Shown here piece by piece: positions 370-64,000 of a stretch of 64,000 bases of DNA. Position numbers and translations under genes: made by a program. Each line of letters begins with the position of its first letter. The first letter of the stretch is position 1. The notes beneath the pieces were generated by a model, which was not told the DNA's origin, ran no database searches, and was given only the letters and a program-made list of their open reading frames with translations. Source of the DNA: Eledone cirrhosa (Eukaryota); the NCBI GenBank assembly GCA_964016885.1, contig OZ024744.1, positions 52,328,001 to 52,392,000 on the forward strand, given 5' to 3'.

Positions 370-1020
370 TTGGGGAGATGAGTTGAGTCCAAGAGGGGAT
401 TATGACCCAAGGCGGTGAATCAGACTTTGTTCTGTCATGCTGCGCGAAGCCTGCGATCCATGATGTAAAAGGACACCCAGGACTGAAACATGTAGGGAAG
501 AATGACCAGGAGAACAGAAATGACGGGCGACAGGAGTATCCAAACCGAGTCGTATGTCCCTCAAATTCTCAGCAAAACGGTCCGCCATACGGCGTCCCGT
601 TCGTCCGATACATAGAGACCCGCGAAGGGAACACCGGAGGGCATAGACAACATGGGTGGATGTACAGGTGAAGGAATGGGGGATACGGAAATACCCGTTA
701 GGGTCTGTAAGACTGGTGAGGGTGGACATAAAGGGACAAGCATTGCAGCGGGAACAGGAACAAGGATGAGAGCCTGGTGGTGTCGTTGGAGAGGACGGGA
801 AGGAACTGCAAACCAGAAGTTCGCGGATGTTGCGGGCGCAGTTAGAAGCAATAATGGCTGGGTTTGAAAAAAAGCGAGAAGTGACCGTGTCAGAAGGGAA
901 GATACGGAAGGAACGGAGGACATGTCGCCGGAGTGGTAGGGTGATGAGGTGGTAGGTGATAGAGAAATGAAGGCGGGTGTTGAGAGGGCGGGAGTGAGGT
1001 GAGAGTGCTGTGGTGCGGTC
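370..1020 (-). mobile_element. Penelope-like element 3' fragment: RT C-terminus and GIY-YIG endonuclease
   Basis: ORF 400..1326 contains CSRCNACPFM...FTCTSTHVVYALRC...CIGRTGRRMADRFAENLRDI...PVARHF...EQSLIHRLGS, a PLE GIY-YIG signature. The N-terminal part of the ORF is only (CA)n. Confidence 0.85.
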
Positions 1021-10744: not shown

Positions 10745-11560
10745 CTATATAGATTGGTCTCGTATTGTCGGATTCAAAACAAATGTAGATATTCTTTTTA
10801 TCACTGTATAAGGAATGTGTTTGTATATGTTTAGGATGACAACATATTAGTAGTGCACATTGTTTTGAGTATGTGGTATATAATCAACATCCGTTTCCAT
10901 TCATCTATCCTAAAAGGGAGTTCTTTCTTGCTTGCTAAATACCATAGTGAATTGAAGGTGGGTATTTATGGATTTTATATTATTTTAAAATTCTATCTTT
11001 CTTTTTGTTCCATAAGATCAAAGAGTCATGAAGAAAATCTTCCTAAGTCTTTTACTCCAAGACTTTTTTTAGTGAATCTTCACGAGTTTTCTTGATTTGC
11101 TAATGTTGGTGCTACTTTACTATACATGGCTCTTCCTGAAATTCGTCGAACATAAAATGATAGTTTTGTAGAAAACGTAATTTGTTTCAATACGTTCTGT
11201 TAATTAAAATAGATGTGTTAGGCCAATATTGAAATGTCTCTATTCCATAAATACGTGGGATATAAGTGTATATACTAATCCCATCAAATGAAACAATAAA
11301 TGTTGTAGTTTTATTTATTCTTTCCGTTCAATAATTGGTATATTGGTGTCATTTCGAATAAATCTTGGTACGTATACTAGAAAATGTTTTATTAAAATAG
11401 CCTAGAAATCTCATAATCTACATGTTTCGCAAGTTTCAAGTCTTGTGATGAAGATAGTTTGATGTATTTCGAATTAGATTTTTGGCATACTACGATTATT
11501 TCTTTATTCTTATGAACCTTTGGTAAACCGAAAAAATTACTCGTTTAATATTTGTTAATT
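10745..11560 (-). pseudogene. Highly degenerate Penelope-like reverse transcriptase
   Basis: Manual translation fragments: TSNFFGLPKVHKNKEII...SQDLKL, VSFDGISIYTYIP, GRAMYSKVAPTLAN, CCHPKHI; many stops and frameshifts. Confidence 0.7.
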
Positions 11561-12857: not shown

Positions 12858-12859
<2 letters not shown>

Positions 12860-12990
12860 GTAGTAGAGTGGGTAATAGGAAAAGACTCAGGACCCCGACG
12901 GCTGAGCTCTGGCCGTTTCGACAACTAGTTCAGAAATAGCTGTCGAAACGGCCGGATCTCAGCCGCCGGGGTCCTGACTCTTTTCCTATA
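12858..12990. mobile_element. Short fold-back element in (TA)n (GAGCTC/GAAACGGC family)
   Basis: Arms 12875-12930 / 12935-12989 are reverse complements; relatives at 9181-9241, 32113-32180, 34570-34726, 39081-39270. Confidence 0.75.
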
Positions 12991-13106
12991 TATATATATA
13001 TAGAGAGAGAGGTTTTGAGTATATGTTGGTTGTATACCAACACCTAGTATGCAGGCTGGAGCACTCGACGAAGTGCGCAGGTTGCTTTGGTTACTCCGGA
13101 GTAATG

Positions 13107-13543
13107 TAAAATAAAGTTAAATAAAAAGTCAAATGTTTAAAATTTAGCTTCGTTTATTACTGCTATATATATTTCAGTGACAGCCATCTTTGGCTGTGAC
13201 CTCTTCAGGCAGTTTGAATTAGTGTGGTATAGACAAGTACATATGTTGTTGAGGTGTATAATTTTGTCAATACTCTGATATGCCCAGTTCCTGGTTAGGT
13301 TGTTATTTCACTGAGGAACTGGAATCATATGATTCCAGTTCCTCAGTGAAATAACAACCTAACCAGGAACTGCGCATATCAGAGTATTGACAAAATTATA
13401 CACCTCAACAACATATGTACTTGTCTATACCACACTAATTCAAACTGCCTGAAGAGGTCACAGCCAAAGATGGCTGTCACTGAAATATATATAGCAGTAA
13501 TAAACGAAGCTAAATTTTAAACATTTGACTTTTTATTTAACTT

Positions 13544-14240: not shown

Positions 14241-17200
14241 TTACAGACACATACTCAGAGTAGGCCCATTCACTCGGGACATTCTTGCCTCTCTCACATG
14301 CCCGGCTGACGGCACCTCAATGCCTGTAGAGTTTATCCCGAACTGGCAAAGTTCCTCGGTAGCACTGCCAGGCCAGGGATTTCTGGAAGTTGTCCATAGG
14401 CCCCGGCCCGAAAGTTCTTCCGAAGAGATTGGCTAGTTGATTTTCGCCGAGGCCTAGAGTTTCCCCAAGTACGTCGTCGATCTTCCTCTCCACTAATCCT
14501 CTTTAGAACGCCAAGGTGGAGTTTCCACCGATCACATTGCCCGATTAGTCGAGGGCTGTGAGCGCCTGAAGACATTCCAGTCTCCAAGCGCCCTCTCTAG
14601 GTCTTCGCTTGACCCAGGACTGCAGCTCCGTTAAGGAGACGAGCTGGGGATAGACGCGTCTAGCAAACGGCGACCACACCTGATCACCGTCGAGGAAGAG
14701 GTGGAGATGTCGTAGCCTGAGCGCGTGTCTTCGCATCATCAGCTACGGCATTCCCAGCCCACCACGTAGCGGGTGTTGACAGCAGATGGACCGCCTGACC
14801 ATCGGAGCGCGTCCCTTCAACAAAAAGCGAAAGAGCAAACGCTCCAGCGCAGTCAGGCGGGGATTAGGACAAGGTGCGACGGTCAGGCGGTAGTAGATGA
14901 CGGACGCGATATACGCGTTAGCCACCTCCGCTCGACCTTTCAGGGATAGCTTCCTCTCTGCCCATTTCTGGGTGAGAGAAGCCACCCTGCTCGTCACCTC
15001 GTCCCAGTTTTGTCCTTCTGGTGATCCGGACCAAACCAGACCCCGAATAATTTAACCGGTCCGTCCGTCCAGCACCCGACGACGCTGTTGGACGGCATGG
15101 ACCTGCCTCTCCAGATGCCGAGCTGCAAGCCCACTGACTTTTCCTGGTTGACCATTGCTCCTGTCACTGCTTCGTATTCTCTTAGTGTAGTGCCGATCGC
15201 CTCGATGTGTTTGGCGTTCGACACCACTACGGTGACATCGTCCGCATATGCAGACACGGATCTTCTGCATCCTAGTTCGTGCGGGACCCCCCCCCCCTCA
15301 ACGTCTCCAGTTTGTGCAGTAATGCCTCGAGAATCAATATGTACAAGAGGGACGAGAGGGGACATCCTTGGCGGACCGAGCGCATGATGTTGAACGGTTC
15401 CGAAAGGTGACTGTTCACTCTCACCACAGAGCAGATGTCGCTGTGCATGGCAGGGATCCAGCCTTTGAAGACGGGCCCATAGCCAGCCGCCTTCAGGACT
15501 GCCGCTAGGTAACGATGGTCGATCCTATCGAAAGCTTTCGACTGATCTAAATTGATCAAGGACCCACCCGCGCCAGGTTCCCTAGCTACTCTCTCTACGA
15601 TGTATCGCATGAGGTGGAGGTTGTCGTGGATAGATCTGTCGGGAATGGCGCATGTCTGTGCCTCTCCCACCAGACCACCAACGACAAGCGCCAACCTCTT
15701 GCTAGCACCTTCGCCAAAATCTTGAACTCTCTGTTTAGCAGAATTATGGGCCTAAAATTATCTATGTTATCTCCCCTTTTCGCATCCTTTCTCAGCAGCG
15801 CCACAGCTCCTCGGCTCACAGAGCTGGGAATTCTCCCGTTCTGTTGCCAGTTGCAGTAGACGTCCGCCAAGAGGCCTCCGAACAAGTCTGGCATCTGTAC
15901 GTAAAGTTCATAGGACAGACCATCCAAACCAGGCGATTTACCTCTTGTGCAGCCAGTCATTGCCTCCCGTACTTCAGCAGCTGTTGTCGGCTTTTCGCAA
16001 CACTCCGCCTCAGTGGTCGAGAGCCGCGGCAGTCCGTCGATGTAGGCACTAAAGACCATCCCTCGATCCGGCCCCCCGCTGACCCGAACAGCTGAACGAA
16101 TTATCGCTGAAAAGCTTCACACATTTGCCCGGGATCGAGTAGTATGCGCCCGTCGTGGTCCACCAAAGACCGGATCGTGGCTTTGTTGCCACGACGCGCC
16201 TCCGCCAGTCGGACCCATGGAACGACTTTCGTCCCCTCGTGTCTGAGAGCACGCACCCTAGCTCTGACAACGCAGCCTTCGTGCTTTGCCTTGAAGAATT
16301 GGTCAAGGGCCAATTTCGCCGCAAGTACGTCGGTCGCGATGCCTTTGCTAAGCGCCTCGTCTAATTTTCTAACAAGTTCTTCCTCTACTCTATTTTTCTC
16401 TATTGCTAAAGCCTTACTAAACCTAATGGACTCTATTCTAATCGCTCTTTTCAGAGCAAACCACCATCTGTTGTTGACGATGGCTCCCCGTCAACGCCCG
16501 CTTAACTAGTTCGCTAATCCGGTCTCTGTAGGCCTTGCACGCTGGTAAGGATGCGTTTAGCTTCCAGTAGCCGGGTCCTCGTCTATGAAGCCTATCTAAG
16601 TCAAGCACACAGATAACGAATTTATGGTCCGTGTAGCTGACTATCTTGAATTGTGGACAGCCTATGCTAGACCTATCTATTTCCCTATAAAATACTGTAT
16701 CTAGATATGATCTGGATGAACCTATGCGATTTGTCCAAGTCCACATTGGCACATTCGGGAAATCCAATCGGTACCTGTCAGACAGTTCAAAACGCCTGAG
16801 CAGGTTGGTGAGGCTCTTGCACCCTCCTCCCCTATCCGCTAATCCCACACAATCCCAGCGTGCATCAAAGATCCCCTTCCAGTCGCCCACTAACACTAAA
16901 GAGCGGGACGTTCCAAGAAAGGTCTCCAGACGCCGGAAGAAATCAGGCCACCCTGCTCCTTTCGGGGCTTAGACTGCCACTAGCCTGAAAGCTTGCCCGT
17001 CTCCGCTGGTCACTGCTAGCACCCCCAACTTACCTTCTGGGTCCACGAAGACAGCCCGTATGGCGAGATCCAAACCTAAAAGCACAGCAACTCGTCCCCC
17101 CGATCCCGGACGGCTGGGGGATGCGTACACATCGTAGCCGCCGAAGATCGGTGTGAAGGCCCGTGCTTCGGAGATTCTGGTCTCGCTGACGGCCACTACA

Positions 17201-17298
17201 TCTATGTTTAGTGACCTGATGTCGTTGAGCAGGTGGCCCTGCTTCCATGACGACCCCAAGCCACGCGCATTTATGCTGCCTATTCTGAGTGAGGTCAT
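14241..17298 (-). pseudogene. Tx1-like ORF2 (APE endonuclease and reverse transcriptase), frameshifted
   Basis: MTSLRIGSINARGL...VAVSETR, LVGDW, SYTDHK, KSPGLDGL, NFRPIILLN, DQSKAFD, SVRQGCPLS, SAYADDV, LSLKGR, GGLGMP. Confidence 0.92.
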
Positions 17299-17332
17299 GT
17301 TGAAATGGAGTGGAAAAGATGGGAAAGATCAC

Positions 17333-19440
17333 TTACCTTACTTCTCGTAGAGGAAGGTTGGTTTGCCCATCCTTTTCATTGCTTGTGGCCTCCTCCGGAA
17401 GGATGTCCTTATAAATCCTCCTGGAGAGTGTTTGTCGGAAGTCTCCGATGTCTTTGGGGAATTTTTGTTTTAGTGTCGTGTACGTTTTCTGTGTGATGCG
17501 AGTGATTTGTATGTGTGGAGGTGGTGTGAACTTGCGGGGTGTTGTGTAGTCTTTTTCTGTGATGCTGGTGTTGTGTTGCATGTAGTGTAATAATTGGTTG
17601 TTGTTCAAATTTAATTGTTTCTACTTTTGGCACAAGGCCAGCAATTATCCAGTGCATTACTGGTACTTTATTTTATCGACCCCGTAAGGATGAAAGGCAA
17701 AGTTAACCTCGGCGGGATTTGAACTCAAACCATAAAGGGGCGTAACTCTTTGCTGCAAAGCATAGCGTCAGACCCTCTACCGATACTGCCAATCCACCGC
17801 CCTCAACGGTTGTTGTTCAAATTTAATGCTGTGTAGTGTGTATCGTTTTGGTTGTTTTGCTTTGTTTGCGTTTGTTGTCGGTTTGTTTCTGTTACGCTTT
17901 TTGGTGAATTTTGTGGTGTTGGTGATGGTGGTGTTGGGGTTAATGATGGTGATGGTGTTGGTGTTTGTGGTGATGGGGTTGGTGATGCTGGTGTGGATGG
18001 TGGCATATCTGTCCTAACTTTTTTGTTTGATAATTTATTTGTTTCCCTCTGTATTTTGTTTTTGGAGGGGGAAGGAAGAGAATTTTTTCTTTTTTTTTTT
18101 CTTTTTTTCTTTTTTTTTATACCGTTTCCCACTCCTCGTCGTCACAATCTGTCTCCAGTTGCGATAGGCCGGGGAGTGGAAAATCCTCCATAGGCGTTGG
18201 TTTTGGTTGTGGCGTGGTGGATGGTGTAGGTGCTGGTGCCAGTTCTGGCGCGTTGGGTGGTAGTGGTGTTGGTTTTGCTTCTGTTGCTGGGGTTGTTGCT
18301 GTTACAGTTGCTTCTTTTGTTGCTGCTACAGTTCTTGCTGCCATTTCTGCTGCTGGTGGTGTTGATGGTTGAGTCACTGGGGTGGGTAAGAGAGGTGGCC
18401 TCAACCTTTTTTGCCTGAGGGCAGAAAGCCCTTAGGTGGGTTCCTTCACCACAAACGACACACCTAGGCCTTCTGCCCTCGACGATTACGGTGAGGTGGC
18501 TGCCGTCAGTGAGGTCTATTACCTCTGGGATCTCCTCAATGCTTTTATGGTCCGCTTGGATCAGGAGCTCCATCCCAGATCCGGACCAGTTCTCCTGCTT
18601 TTCTTTCGTTATTTCGATTATCTTGGTGTTGGCCTCGATGCCGGCGAGGACGGCAGCCATTAGCCAGGGAATTTTGATGGCCGGTGGAACGTGGGTTAAC
18701 CTGATCTTCACAAGTCTCTGGTCACAATAGCTTGGGACGAGTGTGAAGTCGTCACTTCTTAATGGGGCCATGGAGTGTTCTCTGGCCTCCTGTGGTGTTT
18801 CAAAGAACACGTCCACGGTTTCACATTTCTGCCCACGTCTGGGGTGTGTTTTTTTTGCCCACACATGTCCCAAAGCTTTTTAGATTTGGGACTCGGAAGC
18901 CCGTTCCACTCGGCGCGATTTTATGTTAATTGTCCGATAACACACGGTACATAGGCGACGATGCTCCATTTTATTAGGTGGGGTGGGTGAGGCTGACCCT
19001 GTACCCTTCTTTTGGCTTCTTCTAATTCCTCCTGAGTTACCTGGATCGCCTCGCACGTTTTTGCTACTCTAGCAAAACCTCAGGGTAGTTTTCTTAATTT
19101 CATTGTTGCTGTTGTTGTTATCGTTATTTTTGTTATTGTTAATTTTAGTTTCAGTTGTGGTGGTTCTGTGGAAGAGTTCATTTTGGTTGAATTCATTTCG
19201 ATATCACGAGTTAATTTATTTTTTCTTTTGTTTCTGTTGTCGCTGTGGTGGTAGTGGGGGAGGGGGCGCTTTAACACCTGCAGTCATTGGTAAGGGCGGG
19301 AAATGAATGTCTGGCTGAGACAAATTTAAAATATTGCTATTGCTTATATTTTTAGTGTTGGCAAACGTAGTAATATTTACAATGGTGGTGTCGGTGTGAG
19401 GTGTTAGTTTGTGAGGAAGGAGTGACTCTGAGTCTTCCAT
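17333..19440 (-). pseudogene. Tx1-like ORF1 (gag-like, CCHC zinc knuckle), frameshifted and interrupted by a SINE
   Basis: ORF 18142..18873 has RPRCVVCGEGTHLRAFCP (CX2CX4HX4C), followed by low-complexity Pro/Thr-rich segments. Confidence 0.8.
17612..17802 (-). mobile_element. SINE family 1 inserted in Tx1 ORF1 with a target-site duplication
   Basis: Full SINE; ggttgttgttcaaatttaat is duplicated at 17596-17615 and 17808-17827. Confidence 0.88.
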
Positions 19441-26137: not shown

Positions 26138-26192
26138 CATTCTGATGATTGAAAGCAACATTTGTTTGCTTTTAAGAAACCACTGGTAAATG
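26138..26192 (+). ncRNA. Hammerhead ribozyme in a PLE terminus (26090-26295)
   Basis: catt-CTGATGA-TTGAAAGCAAcatttgtTTGCTTTTAA-GAAA-ccactggt-A-aatg. Confidence 0.85.
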
Positions 26193-30856: not shown

Positions 30857-30916
<60 letters not shown>

Positions 30917-30923
<7 letters not shown>

Positions 30924-31158
30924 GTGACGTTTTTTACAAAATGAAAAATAACCGAGGTGAAAGTAAAAAGAAAAAAAGTTCTTCTGCTTTTCAAAAGTAG
31001 AGTTGAGATGAAAGGTCTGTGAGAAAAACCACAGACCCTCCATCTCAACTCTACTTTTGAAAAGCAGAAGAACTGAGAAACCGGTAAAGGAACCAAATAA
31101 ATATATATATTTAAAAAAAAATAAGACTCCAGTTGCATTTTCGATTTCATCTTTTTTT

Positions 31159-31165
<7 letters not shown>
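30917..31165. mobile_element. Fold-back PLE-type terminus, same family as 34807-35170
   Basis: Shares ttgaaaagcagaagaactg.gaaaccggtaaagg and flanks with the 34.8-kb unit. Confidence 0.75.
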
Positions 31166-31797: not shown

Positions 31798-32327
31798 TAC
31801 ATACGTACATACATACACACATTCATATATGCGTACATACATACACAAATACATACATACTTACACACATAAACACATAAATACATACATGCGTACATAC
31901 ATATACATACATACTTACATATATACATACATATATGCATATATACGTGCATACATACATACACAGGCACGTTTGCACTTGCATTCAATTGTACATTTAA
32001 AAAGCATATCACTGTGTTTTACATGGCTGTTGTGTTCCAAGTGTAAAATAAGATGTATTATACAATATTTAAAGCGTGCTATATATATATACGTATATAT
32101 ATATATATATATATAGGAACATGTATGACCCCGACGGCAGAGCTCAAGCCGTTTCGACGGCTATTTTTGGACTTCGTCATATATATATATATATATATAT
32201 ATAGCATGCATGCACACAAATTTACGCTTTTAAATATTGTATAATACATATATATATATATATATAAATATACATATCTACATAAATATATTGTATATAT
32301 TGTATAGTATATATATAAATACACACG

Positions 32328-34434: not shown

Positions 34435-34570
<136 letters not shown>

Positions 34571-34806
34571 CGCACCAAAGTACTCAATACTTAGGGTAGT
34601 AGAGTGGGTAATAGGAACGAGTAGGACTCCGACGGCTGAGCTCAAGCCGTTTCGACGGCTAATTCAGGACTCGTCCAGAATTAGCCGTCGAAACGGCTTG
34701 AGCTCGGGGGTCCTACTCGTTCCTATATATATATATATATATATATGTGTAAATATATATATATATATATGCTTGTATGTAAATTTATATATATATATAT
34801 ATATAT

Positions 34807-35108
34807 ATAAAGAAAAAGAGATGAAATCGAAAATGCAACTGGAGTCTTACTTTTTTTTTAAATATATATATTTATTTGGTTCCTTTACCGGTTTCGCAGT
34901 TCTTCTGCTTTTCAAAAGGTGAGTTGAGATGGAGGGTCTGTGGTTTTTCTCAAATCAGATGTGAGAAAAACCACAGACCCTCCATCTCAACTCACCTTTT
35001 GAAAAGCAGAAGAACTGCGAAACCGGTAAAGGAACCAAATAAATATATATATTTAAAAAAAAAGTAAGACTCCAGTTGCATTTTCGATTTCATCTCTTTT
35101 TCTTTATA
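34807..35108. repeat. ~145-bp-arm palindrome (9-nt loop) carrying a variant hammerhead on each strand
   Basis: 34807-34951 is the reverse complement of 34961-35108. Confidence 0.9.
34995..35032 (+). ncRNA. Hammerhead ribozyme with a U3-A8 core (mirror 34882-34919)
   Basis: cctt-TTGAAAA-GCAGaagaaCTGC-GAAA-ccggt-A-aagg. Confidence 0.72.
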
Positions 35109-35164
35109 CTTTCACTCGTGTAGGACACCTCGGTTATTTTTCATTTTGTAAAAAAAAACCTCAC

Positions 35165-35203
<39 letters not shown>

Positions 35204-39084: not shown

Positions 39085-39292
39085 ATGTTTGACCCCGACG
39101 GCAGAGCTCAAGCCGTCGAAACGGCTATTTCAGTCCAGAAATAGCCATCGAAACGGCTTGAGCTCTGCCGTGGGGGTCAAATATTTTCCTATTACCCACT
39201 CTACTACCCTAAGTATTGAGTATTCTGATGCGTTATGGACCATCTGGTTCCTTACCACACCTCCTTCATTATATATATACACACACACACAC

Positions 39293-59649: not shown

Positions 59650-62600
59650 ATGCTGTCTTTATTAACCACAAGGGTTTACATAAATAAGACATTAAGGACA
59701 GTACAGGACAATACAGGACGGTACAAATGGGCATTTGTGCGTGTAAAAAAAACAGAGGATCTAATAAAAATAACAATGAAAAATTCCAAATAGGGGGGAG
59801 ACTTCCGAGGGACATTTGTGGAGGAAGCCCATTAACAGGCCACAGTGATCCTGACCACCAGGGCAAGTGCCCTCTCCCAGTTTTCCACCTTTAATTTACA
59901 GACACATACATGGGCCATACTTGATTCTCTCACCCATCTTTCAATAAAATGCTGGGAAGAGAGGACTTCCCTCTCTACCCTGATTTTCCTTTTCAAATGA
60001 AATTTGAAAAAGTCAATCAGGGCATCACCGAAGAGATAAGTGCTCGTCTTCAGCCCTTTCAAACGTGTCCACCATACTATCTCTTTCGCCATGGCCACCA
60101 GAGATATAAAAACTACCTGCCCTTCCAGGCTAAAGGAAGAGGGCGGGGCAACCCTCACGATGGACTCAGCTGATAGCCGGATCCGTCATACACGCGACAG
60201 CAAGTGTTCGAAATAAACCCACAAGTCAGCAATTCTCGGACACTGGACGAGTGCGTGCAGGACGGTTTCGTCGCCCTGCACGCATCTCGGACATGCCTGG
60301 CTGACGGCACATCCATGCCTGTAGAGTTTATCCCGAACTGGCAAGGCTCCTCGGGTGCACTGCCAGGCCAGGGATTTCTGGAAGTTGTTCATAGGCCCCG
60401 GCCCGAAAGTTCTTCCGAAGAGATTGGCTAGTTGATTTTCGTCGAGGCCTAGAGTTTTCCCAAGTACGTCGTCGCTCTTCCCCTCCACTAATCCTCTATA
60501 GAACGCCGAGGTGGAGTTTCCACCGATCACATTGCCCGATTGGTCGAGGGCTGTGAGCGTCTGAAGACATTCCAGTCTCCAAGCGCTCACCCTCGGTCTT
60601 CGCTTGACATAGGAGTGCAGCTCCGTCAAGGAGACGAGCTGGGGATAGACGCGTCTTGCAAACACGGCGACAACACCTGATCACCGTCGAGGAAGAGGTG
60701 GAGATGTCGTAGCCTGAGCGCGTGCCTGCGCATCATCAGCCACGGCATGCCGAGCCCTCCACGTAGCGGGTGTTGACAACAGATGGACCGCCAGACCATC
60801 GGAGCGCGTCCCTTCCACAAAAAGCGAAAGAGCAAACGCTCCAGCGCAGTCAGGCGAGGCTTAGGACAAGGTACGACGGTCAGACGGTAGCAGATGACGG
60901 ACGCGATGTACGCGTTAGCCACCTCCGCTCGACCTTTCAGGGATAGCTTCCTCTCCGCCCATTTCTGGGTGAGAGAAGCCACCCTGCTCGTCACCTCGTC
61001 CCAGTTTTTGTCCGTCTGGAGGTCCGGACCGGACCAAAACCCGAGAAATTTAACCGGTCCGTCCATCCAGCGCCCGACGACGCTGTTGGACGGCATGGAC
61101 CTGCCTCTCCAGGTGCCGAGCTGAAAGGCCCACTGACTTTTCCTGGCTGATCATTGCTCCTGTTACCGCTTCGTATTCTCTTAGTGTAGTGCCGATCGCC
61201 TCGATGTGTTTGGCGTTCGACACCACTACGGTGACATCGTCCGCATATGCTGACACGGATCTTCCGCATCCTAGTTCGCGCGGGACCCTCCTCAACGTCT
61301 CTAAATTGATCAAGGACCCACCCGTGCCAGATTCCCTAGCTACCCTCTCTACGATATATCGCATGAGGTGGAGGTTGTCTTTGATGGATCTGTCGGGAAT
61401 GGTGCATATCTGCGCCTCTCCCACTAGACCACAAACGACAAGCGCCAACCTCTTTGCTAGCTCCTTGGCCAAAATCTTGAACTCTGTGTTTAGCTGAGTT
61501 ATAGGCCTGACATTATCTATGTTATCCCCCTTGTTCGGATCCTTTCTCAGCAGTGCCACCGCTCCTCGGCTCACAGAGCTGGGAATTCTCCCGTTCTGTT
61601 GCAAGTTGCAGTAGACGTACGCCAAGAGGCCTCCAAACAAGTTTGGCATCTGTACGTAAAGTTCATAGGGCAGACCATCCAAACCATGCGATTTACCCCT
61701 TGTGCAGCCAGTCATTGCCTCCAGTATTTCAGCGGCTGTTATCGGCTTTTCGCAACACTCCGCCTCAGTGGCCGAGAGCCACGGCAGTCCGTCGGGGTAG
61801 ACACTAAAGTCCATTCCTCGACCCGGCCCACCGCTGCCCTCGTACATTTGAGTGAAGTGTCGCTGAAAAGCTTCACACATTTTCCCGGGATCGAGTAGCA
61901 TGCGCCCGTCGTGGTCCACCAAAGACCGGATCGTGGCTTTGTTGCCACGACGCGCCTCCGCCACTCGGGCCCATTGAACGGCTTTCGTCGCCTCGTGTCT
62001 GAGAGCACGCACCCTAGATCTGACAACGCAGCATTCGTGCTTTGCATTGAAGAATTGTTCAAGGGCCAATTTCGCCGCAAGTACGTCGGTCGCGATGCCT
62101 TTGCTAAGCGCCTCGTCTAATTTTCTAACTAGTTCTCCCTCTGCGCTATTTTTCTCTATTGCTAAAGCCTTACTTATCCTAATGGACTCTATTCTAATCC
62201 CTCTTTTTAAAGCAAACCACCACTTGTTGACGATGGCCTCCGTTAACGCCACTTAACTAGTTCGCTAATCCGGTCTCTGTAGGCCTTGCGCGCTGGTAAG
62301 GACGCGTTTAGCTTCCAGTAGCCGGGTCCTCGTCTATGAAGCCTATCTAAGTCAAGCATACAGGTCACGAATTTGTGGTCCGTGTAGCTGACTATCTTGA
62401 ATTGTGGACAGCCTATGCTAGACCTATCTATTTCCCTACAAAATACTCTATCTAGATATGATCTGGATGACCCTATGCGGTTTGTCCAAGTCCACATTGG
62501 CACATTCGGGAAATCCAATCGGTACCTGTCAGACAGTTCAAAACGCCTGAGCAAGTTGGTGAGGCTCTTGCACCCTCCTCCCCTATCCGCTAATCGCACA

Positions 62601-62860
62601 CAGTCCCAGTGTGCATCTAAGATCCCGTTCCAGTCGCCCACTAACACTAAATAGCGGGACGTTCCAAGAAAGGTCTCCAGACGCCGGAAGAAATCAGGCC
62701 GCCCTGCTCCTTTCGGGGCATAACGGCCACTAGCCTGAAAGCTTTCCCGTCTCTGCTGGTCACGTCCAGCACCACCAACTCACCTTCTGGGTCCAGGAAG
62801 ATGGCCCGTATGGCGAGACCCAAACCTCTCTGAAAAAGCACATCAACTCCACCCCCCAAT
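59650..62860 (-). mobile_element. 5'-truncated Tx1-like LINE, same family as 13992-19656
   Basis: High identity to the 14-17 kb copy; APE, RT (internal deletion) and CPRC...HALVQC; 3' end in (AAT)n. Confidence 0.92.
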
Positions 62861-63001
62861 CCGTGCCTGTAGAGTTTATCCCGAACCGGTAGTGCCCCCC
62901 GGTTGCACTGCCAAGCGACGGATTTTTGGAAATTGTCCATCGTCCCCGGATCGAAAGTCCTCCGGTACAGACTGGTCACTTCGACTTCGTCTCGACGAAT
63001 G

Positions 63002-63035
<34 letters not shown>

Positions 63036-64000
63036 TTTCTTTATTGGCCACAAGGGCAGACATCAAGAAAAACATTACAGACGGCACAGGACGGTACGAT
63101 GTGGGTTTTGTGCGTGTAAATATTTTTATTATTTATATAAGAAAGAAAAGAAAAAAAAAAGGACATAAAACATAGATATATAAACAATAAAAATGAAAAT
63201 TGAAACAATGAAAAATTCCCCAATAGGGGGAAACCTCCGAGGGTTACTCGTGGCGAAAACCACACAAAAGACCACGGCCACCCTGACCACCACGGCAAGC
63301 GCCCTCTCTCAATTTTTCCATCTCTCAATCTACAGGCCTATATTCAGAGTGGTCCCGTTCACTCGGACCATTCCGCTACATTCACCCACCTTTCAACAAA
63401 TTTGTTAGAAAGCAGCACTTGCCTCTCCACCCTGATTTTCCTCTTCAAGTGAAACTTGAAAAAGTTAATTAGGGATTCGCTGAAGAGGAAAGTGTCTGTC
63501 TTTAACCCTTTTAACCTTGTCCACCACACAATCTCTTTCGCCATGGCCACCAGGCAGATGAAATCCGCCTGCCCTTTCTCCTCGAAGGAAGACGGCGAGA
63601 CCAACAGCACAATGGACTCAGTCGACAACCGGATGAGTCCCACACGCGACAGCAACTGTTCGACCTAGCACCACAAGTCAGCAATGCTCGGGCACTGAAC
63701 GAGTGCGTGCACAACGGTTTCGTCGCTCTGCGCGCATCTCGGACAGGCTCGGCTGACGGCACTTCCGTGCCTGTAGAGCTTATCTCGAACCGGCTGCGCT
63801 CCCCGGTAGCACTGCCAGGCCAGGGATTTTTGGAGACATCCCAGTTTCCAAACGCTATCCCTCGGTCTTTTTCTGACCCGGGACTGCAGCTCCGTCAAGG
63901 AGACGAGCTGTGGGAAAACGTGCCTGGCGAACGGCGACCACACCCGTTCACCATCAAGGAAGCACCAGAGATGTCGCAGCCTCAGCGCATGTTTGCGCAT
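62861..64000 (-). mobile_element. Tx1-like LINE subfamily 2: small fragment (62861-63000) and 3' end (63033 to beyond the window)
   Basis: LAWQCYRGAQPVRDKL...CPRC...HALVQC, AKEIVWWTR; 3' end in (AAT)n. Confidence 0.88.

Follow-up and report, generated by a model that had tools for sequence, protein, structure and literature searches.

A U3-A8 hammerhead motif in the pLTRs of an abundant Penelope-like retroelement family of Eledone cirrhosa

Several natural hammerheads show covariation of the C3-G8 pair to U3-A8 (Perreault et al. 2011, PMC3088659). According to the same paper, ribozymes with the U3-A8 core were previously shown to be active in vitro, and its reference 32, Przybilski and Hammann 2007, concerns the biochemistry of 3-8 pair exchanges. 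The U3-A8 core was also described in Penelope-like elements (PLEs) of Schistosoma, where the hammerheads were missed by a first descriptor and about 1,300 matches were obtained with a new one (Cervera and De la Pena 2014, PMC4209133). Minimal PLE hammerhead motifs are described there as having low activity, and a dimer model has been put forward for PLE hammerheads (PMC4209133, PMC6765202). The account in PMC11167929 gives a PLE hammerhead that cut only with protein and was dispensable for insertion in vitro, with no RNA reads ending at the cut site. Neptune/Nematis PLEs are described as encoding an RT, a CX2-5CxxC linker and a GIY-YIG with CCHH, and PLEs with an inverted 5'-truncated copy, an optional tail and microsatellite targets are reported in the same source (Craig et al. 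2021, PMC8557442).

We analysed a 64,000-nt stretch of the Eledone cirrhosa genome (assembly GCA_964016885.1, contig OZ024744.1, positions 52,328,001 to 52,392,000; the window), in which an initial annotation had proposed a hammerhead with a compensatory U3-A8 core. Direct reading and a descriptor scan gave the following parts.

34995..35032, plus strand: hammerhead motif of type I; U3-A8 core, helices I and II of 4 bp each, palindromic helix III (direct reading and descriptor scan)
34995-34998 and 35029-35032, plus strand: helix I, CCTT with AAGG
34999-35005, plus strand: hammerhead core TTGAAAA
35006-35009 and 35015-35018, plus strand: helix II, GCAG with CTGC, loop AAGAA
35019-35021, plus strand: GAA box
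35022-35027, plus strand: palindrome ACCGGT (helix III)
35028, plus strand: A17, the end of the GUA triplet; predicted cut at 35028/35029
34882..34919, minus strand: mirror copy of the motif in the inverted arm (descriptor scan)

Stems I and II, the GAAA, the palindromic stem III and the GUA site were thus as first annotated, and the core did read TTGAAAA in place of CTGANGA. The annotated range of 34882-35032 contained the motif, but not as one hammerhead; two copies lie there in opposite orientation, one in each arm of a perfect 147-bp inverted repeat. With positions 3 and 8 left free, the descriptor matched both arms of this fold-back, and there was no match in 20 local shuffles of the window on both strands. 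The motif showed the YUGANRA and GAAA boxes, the UH cut triplet, the G10.1-C11.1 pair and the three helices closed by helix I that define type I, and its family keeps a Watson-Crick pair between positions 3 and 8 (U3-A8). Helix III of the monomer was a 2-bp/2-nt element only. The hammerhead models of Rfam require a canonical core and longer helices. When 34960-35070 was scanned, Rfam returned no hammerhead family at E up to 10 and two chance lncRNA matches, in line with the expectation that searches for CUGANGA would miss the motif; given what the models require, the missing match says nothing on descent. Among the best 150 of 271 matches listed for the whole window, Rfam gave microsatellite-driven miRNA matches below gathering scores alone. 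Judged by sequence, the motif was confirmed as a hammerhead-type RNA motif of a known kind with its core read correctly, and its cleavage is predicted.

As described in PMC4209133, the hammerheads of the Cercyon PLEs of Schistosoma mansoni are alike in their U3-A8 covariation, type I fold and helix I of 4-5 bp, in their pLTR location, in occurring mostly as single motifs from truncated copies, in escaping a standard descriptor, and in forming opposite-strand motif pairs 100-700 bp apart. Unlike Cercyon, the motif here has a 4-bp helix II without an extra base between 9 and 10.1 and a 6-nt helix III palindrome; exact matches of this single family number about 11,700, compared with about 1,300 heterogeneous ones there. 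PLE hammerheads of Drosophila, rotifer, shrimp and mosquito share the small palindromic helix III, the predicted dimer and the pLTR location, but the text on them names no U3-A8 core (PMC4209133; PMC6765202). The exchange itself is the one that Perreault et al. (PMC3088659) describe for hammerheads said to be active in vitro.

The arms of the fold-back (34806-34952 and 34962-35108) formed a perfectly complementary inverted repeat of 147 bp. Compared with L034, a near-full-length copy of the family found elsewhere in the genome, the window contained two insertions.

34956..35171, plus strand: 5'-truncated PLE 3' end, consisting of pLTR and a tail of about 63 nt (35109-35171), then (TA)n; 95% identity to the L034 pLTR
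34806..34955, minus strand: inverted, tail-less copy of the same PLE end, pairing without mismatch with the other arm at 34806-34952
31018..31165, plus strand: second insertion of the same family, a tail-less truncated end; 93% to the L034 pLTR
31053..31090, plus strand: decayed hammerhead motif of the second insertion, U3-A8 core at 31057-31063
30915..31021, minus strand: fragments of the second insertion in inverted orientation, with the tail at 30915-30959 and part of the motif at 30977-31021

The insertion at 34956..35171 begins at the common 5' boundary of the family, and an inverted-copy arrangement of this kind has been described for PLEs (PMC8557442). The fold-back is not read as a MITE, since its arms represent the 3' end of an element that bears an RT and differ in length from one insertion to another. 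In the second insertion, the first helix II pair was broken (C11.1 to A at 31076), the fourth helix I pair was an A-G mismatch, and the MFE fold was without hammerhead helices. This site, annotated at about 31055-31090 as an independent insertion with the same core, is a separate insertion and does carry that core. However, it is no independent evidence of compensation, because it belongs to the same family (the two insertions are 86% identical over 211 nt). RNA read through both arms of the fold-back would form a single 147-bp hairpin abolishing all hammerhead helices. Being enclosed in this perfect fold-back, the window copy is predicted to be inactive and is probably an inert, promoter-side-truncated stub.

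Other repeats were observed in the window. A different fold-back family lies in (TA)n at 34567-34726, 32109-32178, 39091-39236 and 12858-12993, with variable arms, a GAAA-flanked stem and no recognisable hammerhead core in the parts present. Canonical C3-G8 hammerhead-like motifs occur in other repeat families at 26142, 30771 and 52040 (plus), 51623 (minus) and 13449 (plus)/13208 (minus), sometimes as inverted pairs; the pair at 13449/13208 passes the loosest descriptor only. Frames resembling an endonuclease and an RT were visible by eye in two decayed LINE-like elements at 14997-18879 and 60189-63132 (minus), and other PLE-like ORFs have left remnants at 10748-11553 and 556-834 (minus).

The 3.0-Gb assembly containing the window was searched at the DNA level, giving 45 matches from 40 scored candidates. 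Among the matches listed, 30 retrieved loci had their 3' end in common, with simple repeats behind it that were mostly (TA)n, and reached upstream to varying extents, the longer copies spanning >4 kb. L034 is laid out as an inverted stub, a pLTR, an ORF region and a second pLTR, and the hammerhead motif is present in both pLTRs (3659 and 8340) on the ORF strand, as it is in L221-L240. In Pfam, its 768-aa frame matched RVT_1 (E 1.3e-6, score 28.7 against a gathering cut-off of 29.6) and, at the C terminus, GIY-YIG (E 2e-4, score 22.0 against 22.6); a C-x4-C-x2-C linker and a CCHH motif were seen in the translation. The protein had 796 relatives, many with the same domains. The structure and domains of L034, together with the 95% pLTR identity, identify the window element on this evidence as the truncated end and inverted stub of an EN+ PLE (RT, Zn-linker, GIY-YIG). 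With pLTR direct repeats, an inverted 5'-truncated copy, a tail and a microsatellite target, the family resembles the Neptune/Nematis EN+ PLEs, as it does in its RT-linker-GIY-YIG order and CCHH; the tail is about 63 nt here against 30-40 there (PMC8557442). The CX2-5CxxC linker before a GIY-YIG with CCHH would mark it by sequence motifs as Neptune/Nematis-type. In many copies, the stop-to-stop frame is exactly 775 aa (777 aa in a sister family) and starts well past the first ATG behind the 5' pLTR (L034:3858-7275), which suggests a conserved frame break (a frameshift, an intron or a separate upstream ORF) rather than random decay. Another locus (L022/L039, G000:C27) holds a 130-bp tandem array with seven motif copies on one strand and one inverted, and is the sole sampled locus with tandem motifs near enough to favour a dimer in one transcript.

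The core pair was counted genome-wide with an exact 29-letter pattern (Y at 3, N at 7, R at 8), which counts motif matches rather than insertions and leaves family copies with other changes outside. There were 11,746 exact matches, with 11,672 U3-A8 (99.4%), 51 C3-A8, 23 U3-G8 and no C3-G8. The claim that a whole family uses the U3-A8 core was therefore borne out, U3 and A8 co-occurring in nearly all copies, and a C3-G8 consensus was absent; a looser pattern with the same helix III also found no C3-G8 in the whole genome. At the free position 7, A was changed to G in 32 matches, a comparable number, so the mixed cores are ordinary post-insertion changes at background level. Co-occurrence of U3 and A8 inside one family is a single inherited event, not covariation. 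Two subfamilies differ at two bases immediately 5' of the core (34993-34995 versus 31051-31053 in the window), so that helix I has 4 bp in one and 3 bp plus an A-G mismatch in the other; the two are roughly equal in number (34-35 and 39-40 of 75 copies). No age difference between the two variants was detected (25 versus 25 copies, 77 columns, p 0.46), and all 10 near-intact ORF loci L221-L230 had the 4-bp helix I.

Evidence for covariation came from related families. A search with a 59% relative brought up a second local family with 57-58% protein identity. All 10 of its retrieved loci had TTGAAAA, a 5-bp helix II (GATGG/CCATC), GAA and a GUC triplet, and 19 of 20 motif copies kept the palindrome ACCGGT; among 2,000 exact matches, U3-A8 was found in all of the first 100 listed. 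Helix I of the sister family is interrupted (2 bp, a mismatch, 2 bp). The pLTRs of the two families do not align over any length, yet they can be matched in register at the core box and at the GAAACCGGT box, and helix II differs in sequence yet still pairs. We also collected 115 related-ORF loci from metagenome and genome contigs (75 distinct kept of 459, plus 40 of 40). The descriptor found 27 distinct motifs in them, 26 on the ORF strand, against no match in reversed loci and 2 in three shuffles. Fifteen were C3-G8 and ten U3-A8, with one C3-A8 and one U3-G8 (Fisher p 1.4e-5 for the 3-8 association, kinship ignored and many motifs being from one assembly). That 25 of 27 keep C3-G8 or U3-A8 supports the proposal that the change is compensatory. 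A quick RT tree of 23 segments, comprising the two local families and 21 outside loci with an ORF-adjacent motif (five distinct motifs not clearly linked to an ORF were excluded), needed 5 changes of the U3-A8 label, at least 4 of them forced by well-supported branches, and placed C3-G8 carriers as the nearest outside relatives of both local families. Eleven of the closest outside relatives, all without a strict match, were also searched for a relaxed form of the motif; none was found, and these loci are not in the tree. Taken together, the tree changes and the paired outside motifs indicate that positions 3 and 8 have probably changed on several occasions without losing their pairing, one U3-G8 family excepted. 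That family (L303, L313, L314; 5 motif copies) is nested among U3-A8 families and is possibly a wobble intermediate. PLE-type ORFs, some with hammerheads, were also observed in contigs filed as bacterial genomes or MAGs (L316-L355), and are probably animal host DNA carried into bins.

Folding was consistent with a dimer. The monomer helix III cannot close because of its loop of 2 nt, and the cofold of two motif copies was a palindromic helix III dimer at -20.3 kcal/mol (-18.9 for a designed two-site dimer). With ACCGGT in both local families, the intermolecular helix III in the predicted cofold and the pLTR location, the motif appears to belong with the short-helix-III dimeric PLE hammerheads. 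Two motif copies would pair via their ACCGGU palindromes into a 6-bp helix III, U3-A8 would substitute for the tertiary C3-G8 pair, and the cut would fall after GUA. Helix I had a predicted probability of 0.7 when the motif was folded by itself; this fell to 0.03 once 210 nt of context was included and to 0 for the complete fold-back. As regards the tertiary contact between helix I and loop II of fast natural hammerheads, the MFE folds contained no distal helix I. The weak helix I in about half of the copies and in the sister family would argue against strong activity. In the RNA of a full element, the motif would likely be a slow self-cleaving ribozyme needing a dimer or protein.

An anchor lying 65 nt downstream of the core had 14,614 matches, and we mapped the 5' boundaries of the first 90; some entries are two arms of one insertion, and the precision is a few bases. 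Boundaries accumulated at -44..-37 of the core (39 of 90), and a core-anchored sample agreed (27 of 60 at -43..-38). Both window insertions begin at this hotspot (34956-34962 and 31018). Around the cut site (+27..+33) there were 3 boundaries, 2 exactly there, against about 1.8 expected from 20 starts over the neighbouring 78 nt, so that no excess of 5' ends at the cut site was seen in the 90 boundaries sampled, and 78 of the 90 copies spanned the site. The hotspot adjoins CCAGATG, which we take to resemble the initiator consensus. Since PLE transcription starts are located in the pLTR (PMC8557442), we infer that the hotspot is the RNA 5' end; an alternative is a reverse-transcription stop at a small hairpin predicted there. 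Under either reading, the upstream pile-up means that most templates were uncut or rejoined, in keeping with the finding in vitro that insertion is templated by uncut RNA.

We conclude that the motif is very probably the pLTR hammerhead of an abundant U3-A8 PLE family, likely a slow self-cleaver dependent on a dimer or protein and likely dispensable for insertion. It is unlikely, if worth considering, that the motif is a hammerhead by descent that is no longer catalytic in the family and survives in the pLTR as a signal for folding or protein binding. The weak helix I, seen even in the young-looking sister family, would suit such a loss, as would copies crossing the cut site while 5' ends accumulate elsewhere; hammerhead mutants left insertion of another PLE unaffected in vitro (PMC11167929), and other functions are left open in PMC4209133. 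However, G5, A6, A9, G12, A13, A14, A15.1-U16.1 and H17 are kept across two families with unalignable pLTRs, and the 3-8 pair is kept in both local families and is Watson-Crick in nearly all outside motifs. Decay from a C3-G8 family, or a chance match in an A/T-rich palindrome, is highly improbable: the locus is indeed a fold-back in an A/T-rich, microsatellite-rich window and the second window copy is decayed, but decay is refuted by the genome counts, where C3-G8 is absent under the exact and the looser pattern, and chance by the empty window shuffles and by both motif helices lying within one arm, independent of the fold-back.

The U3-A8 variant itself is not new. The variant, its PLE location and its escape from descriptors are already in PMC3088659 and PMC4209133, and the core is the family norm, so that neither a new ribozyme class nor a new core is at hand and novelty is low; the open-access literature on octopus/cephalopod hammerheads yielded no account of this particular family. 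The gain is modest: the known U3-A8 hammerheads are joined by those of a very large family that is uniform in sequence and has many open RT-EN frames. The text of PMC4209133 gives no cleavage result for the U3-A8 variant, and the present family offers a clean natural substrate on which cleavage by U3-A8 PLE hammerheads could be examined. Returning to the preferred reading of a slow pLTR hammerhead, we offer as a tentative and rather doubtful extension that PLE hammerheads switch repeatedly between C3-G8 and U3-A8, possibly via a viable U3-G8 wobble, and that U3-A8 and a weak helix I together mark a ribozyme that is deliberately slowed and gated by protein in this genome. If this is true, the family of about 11,700 copies would record that reverse transcription passes the cut site while it is still intact and runs on to a fixed 5' end of the RNA, which lies about 42 nt upstream of the core, and that fixed end would map the transcription start of the element from insertions alone.
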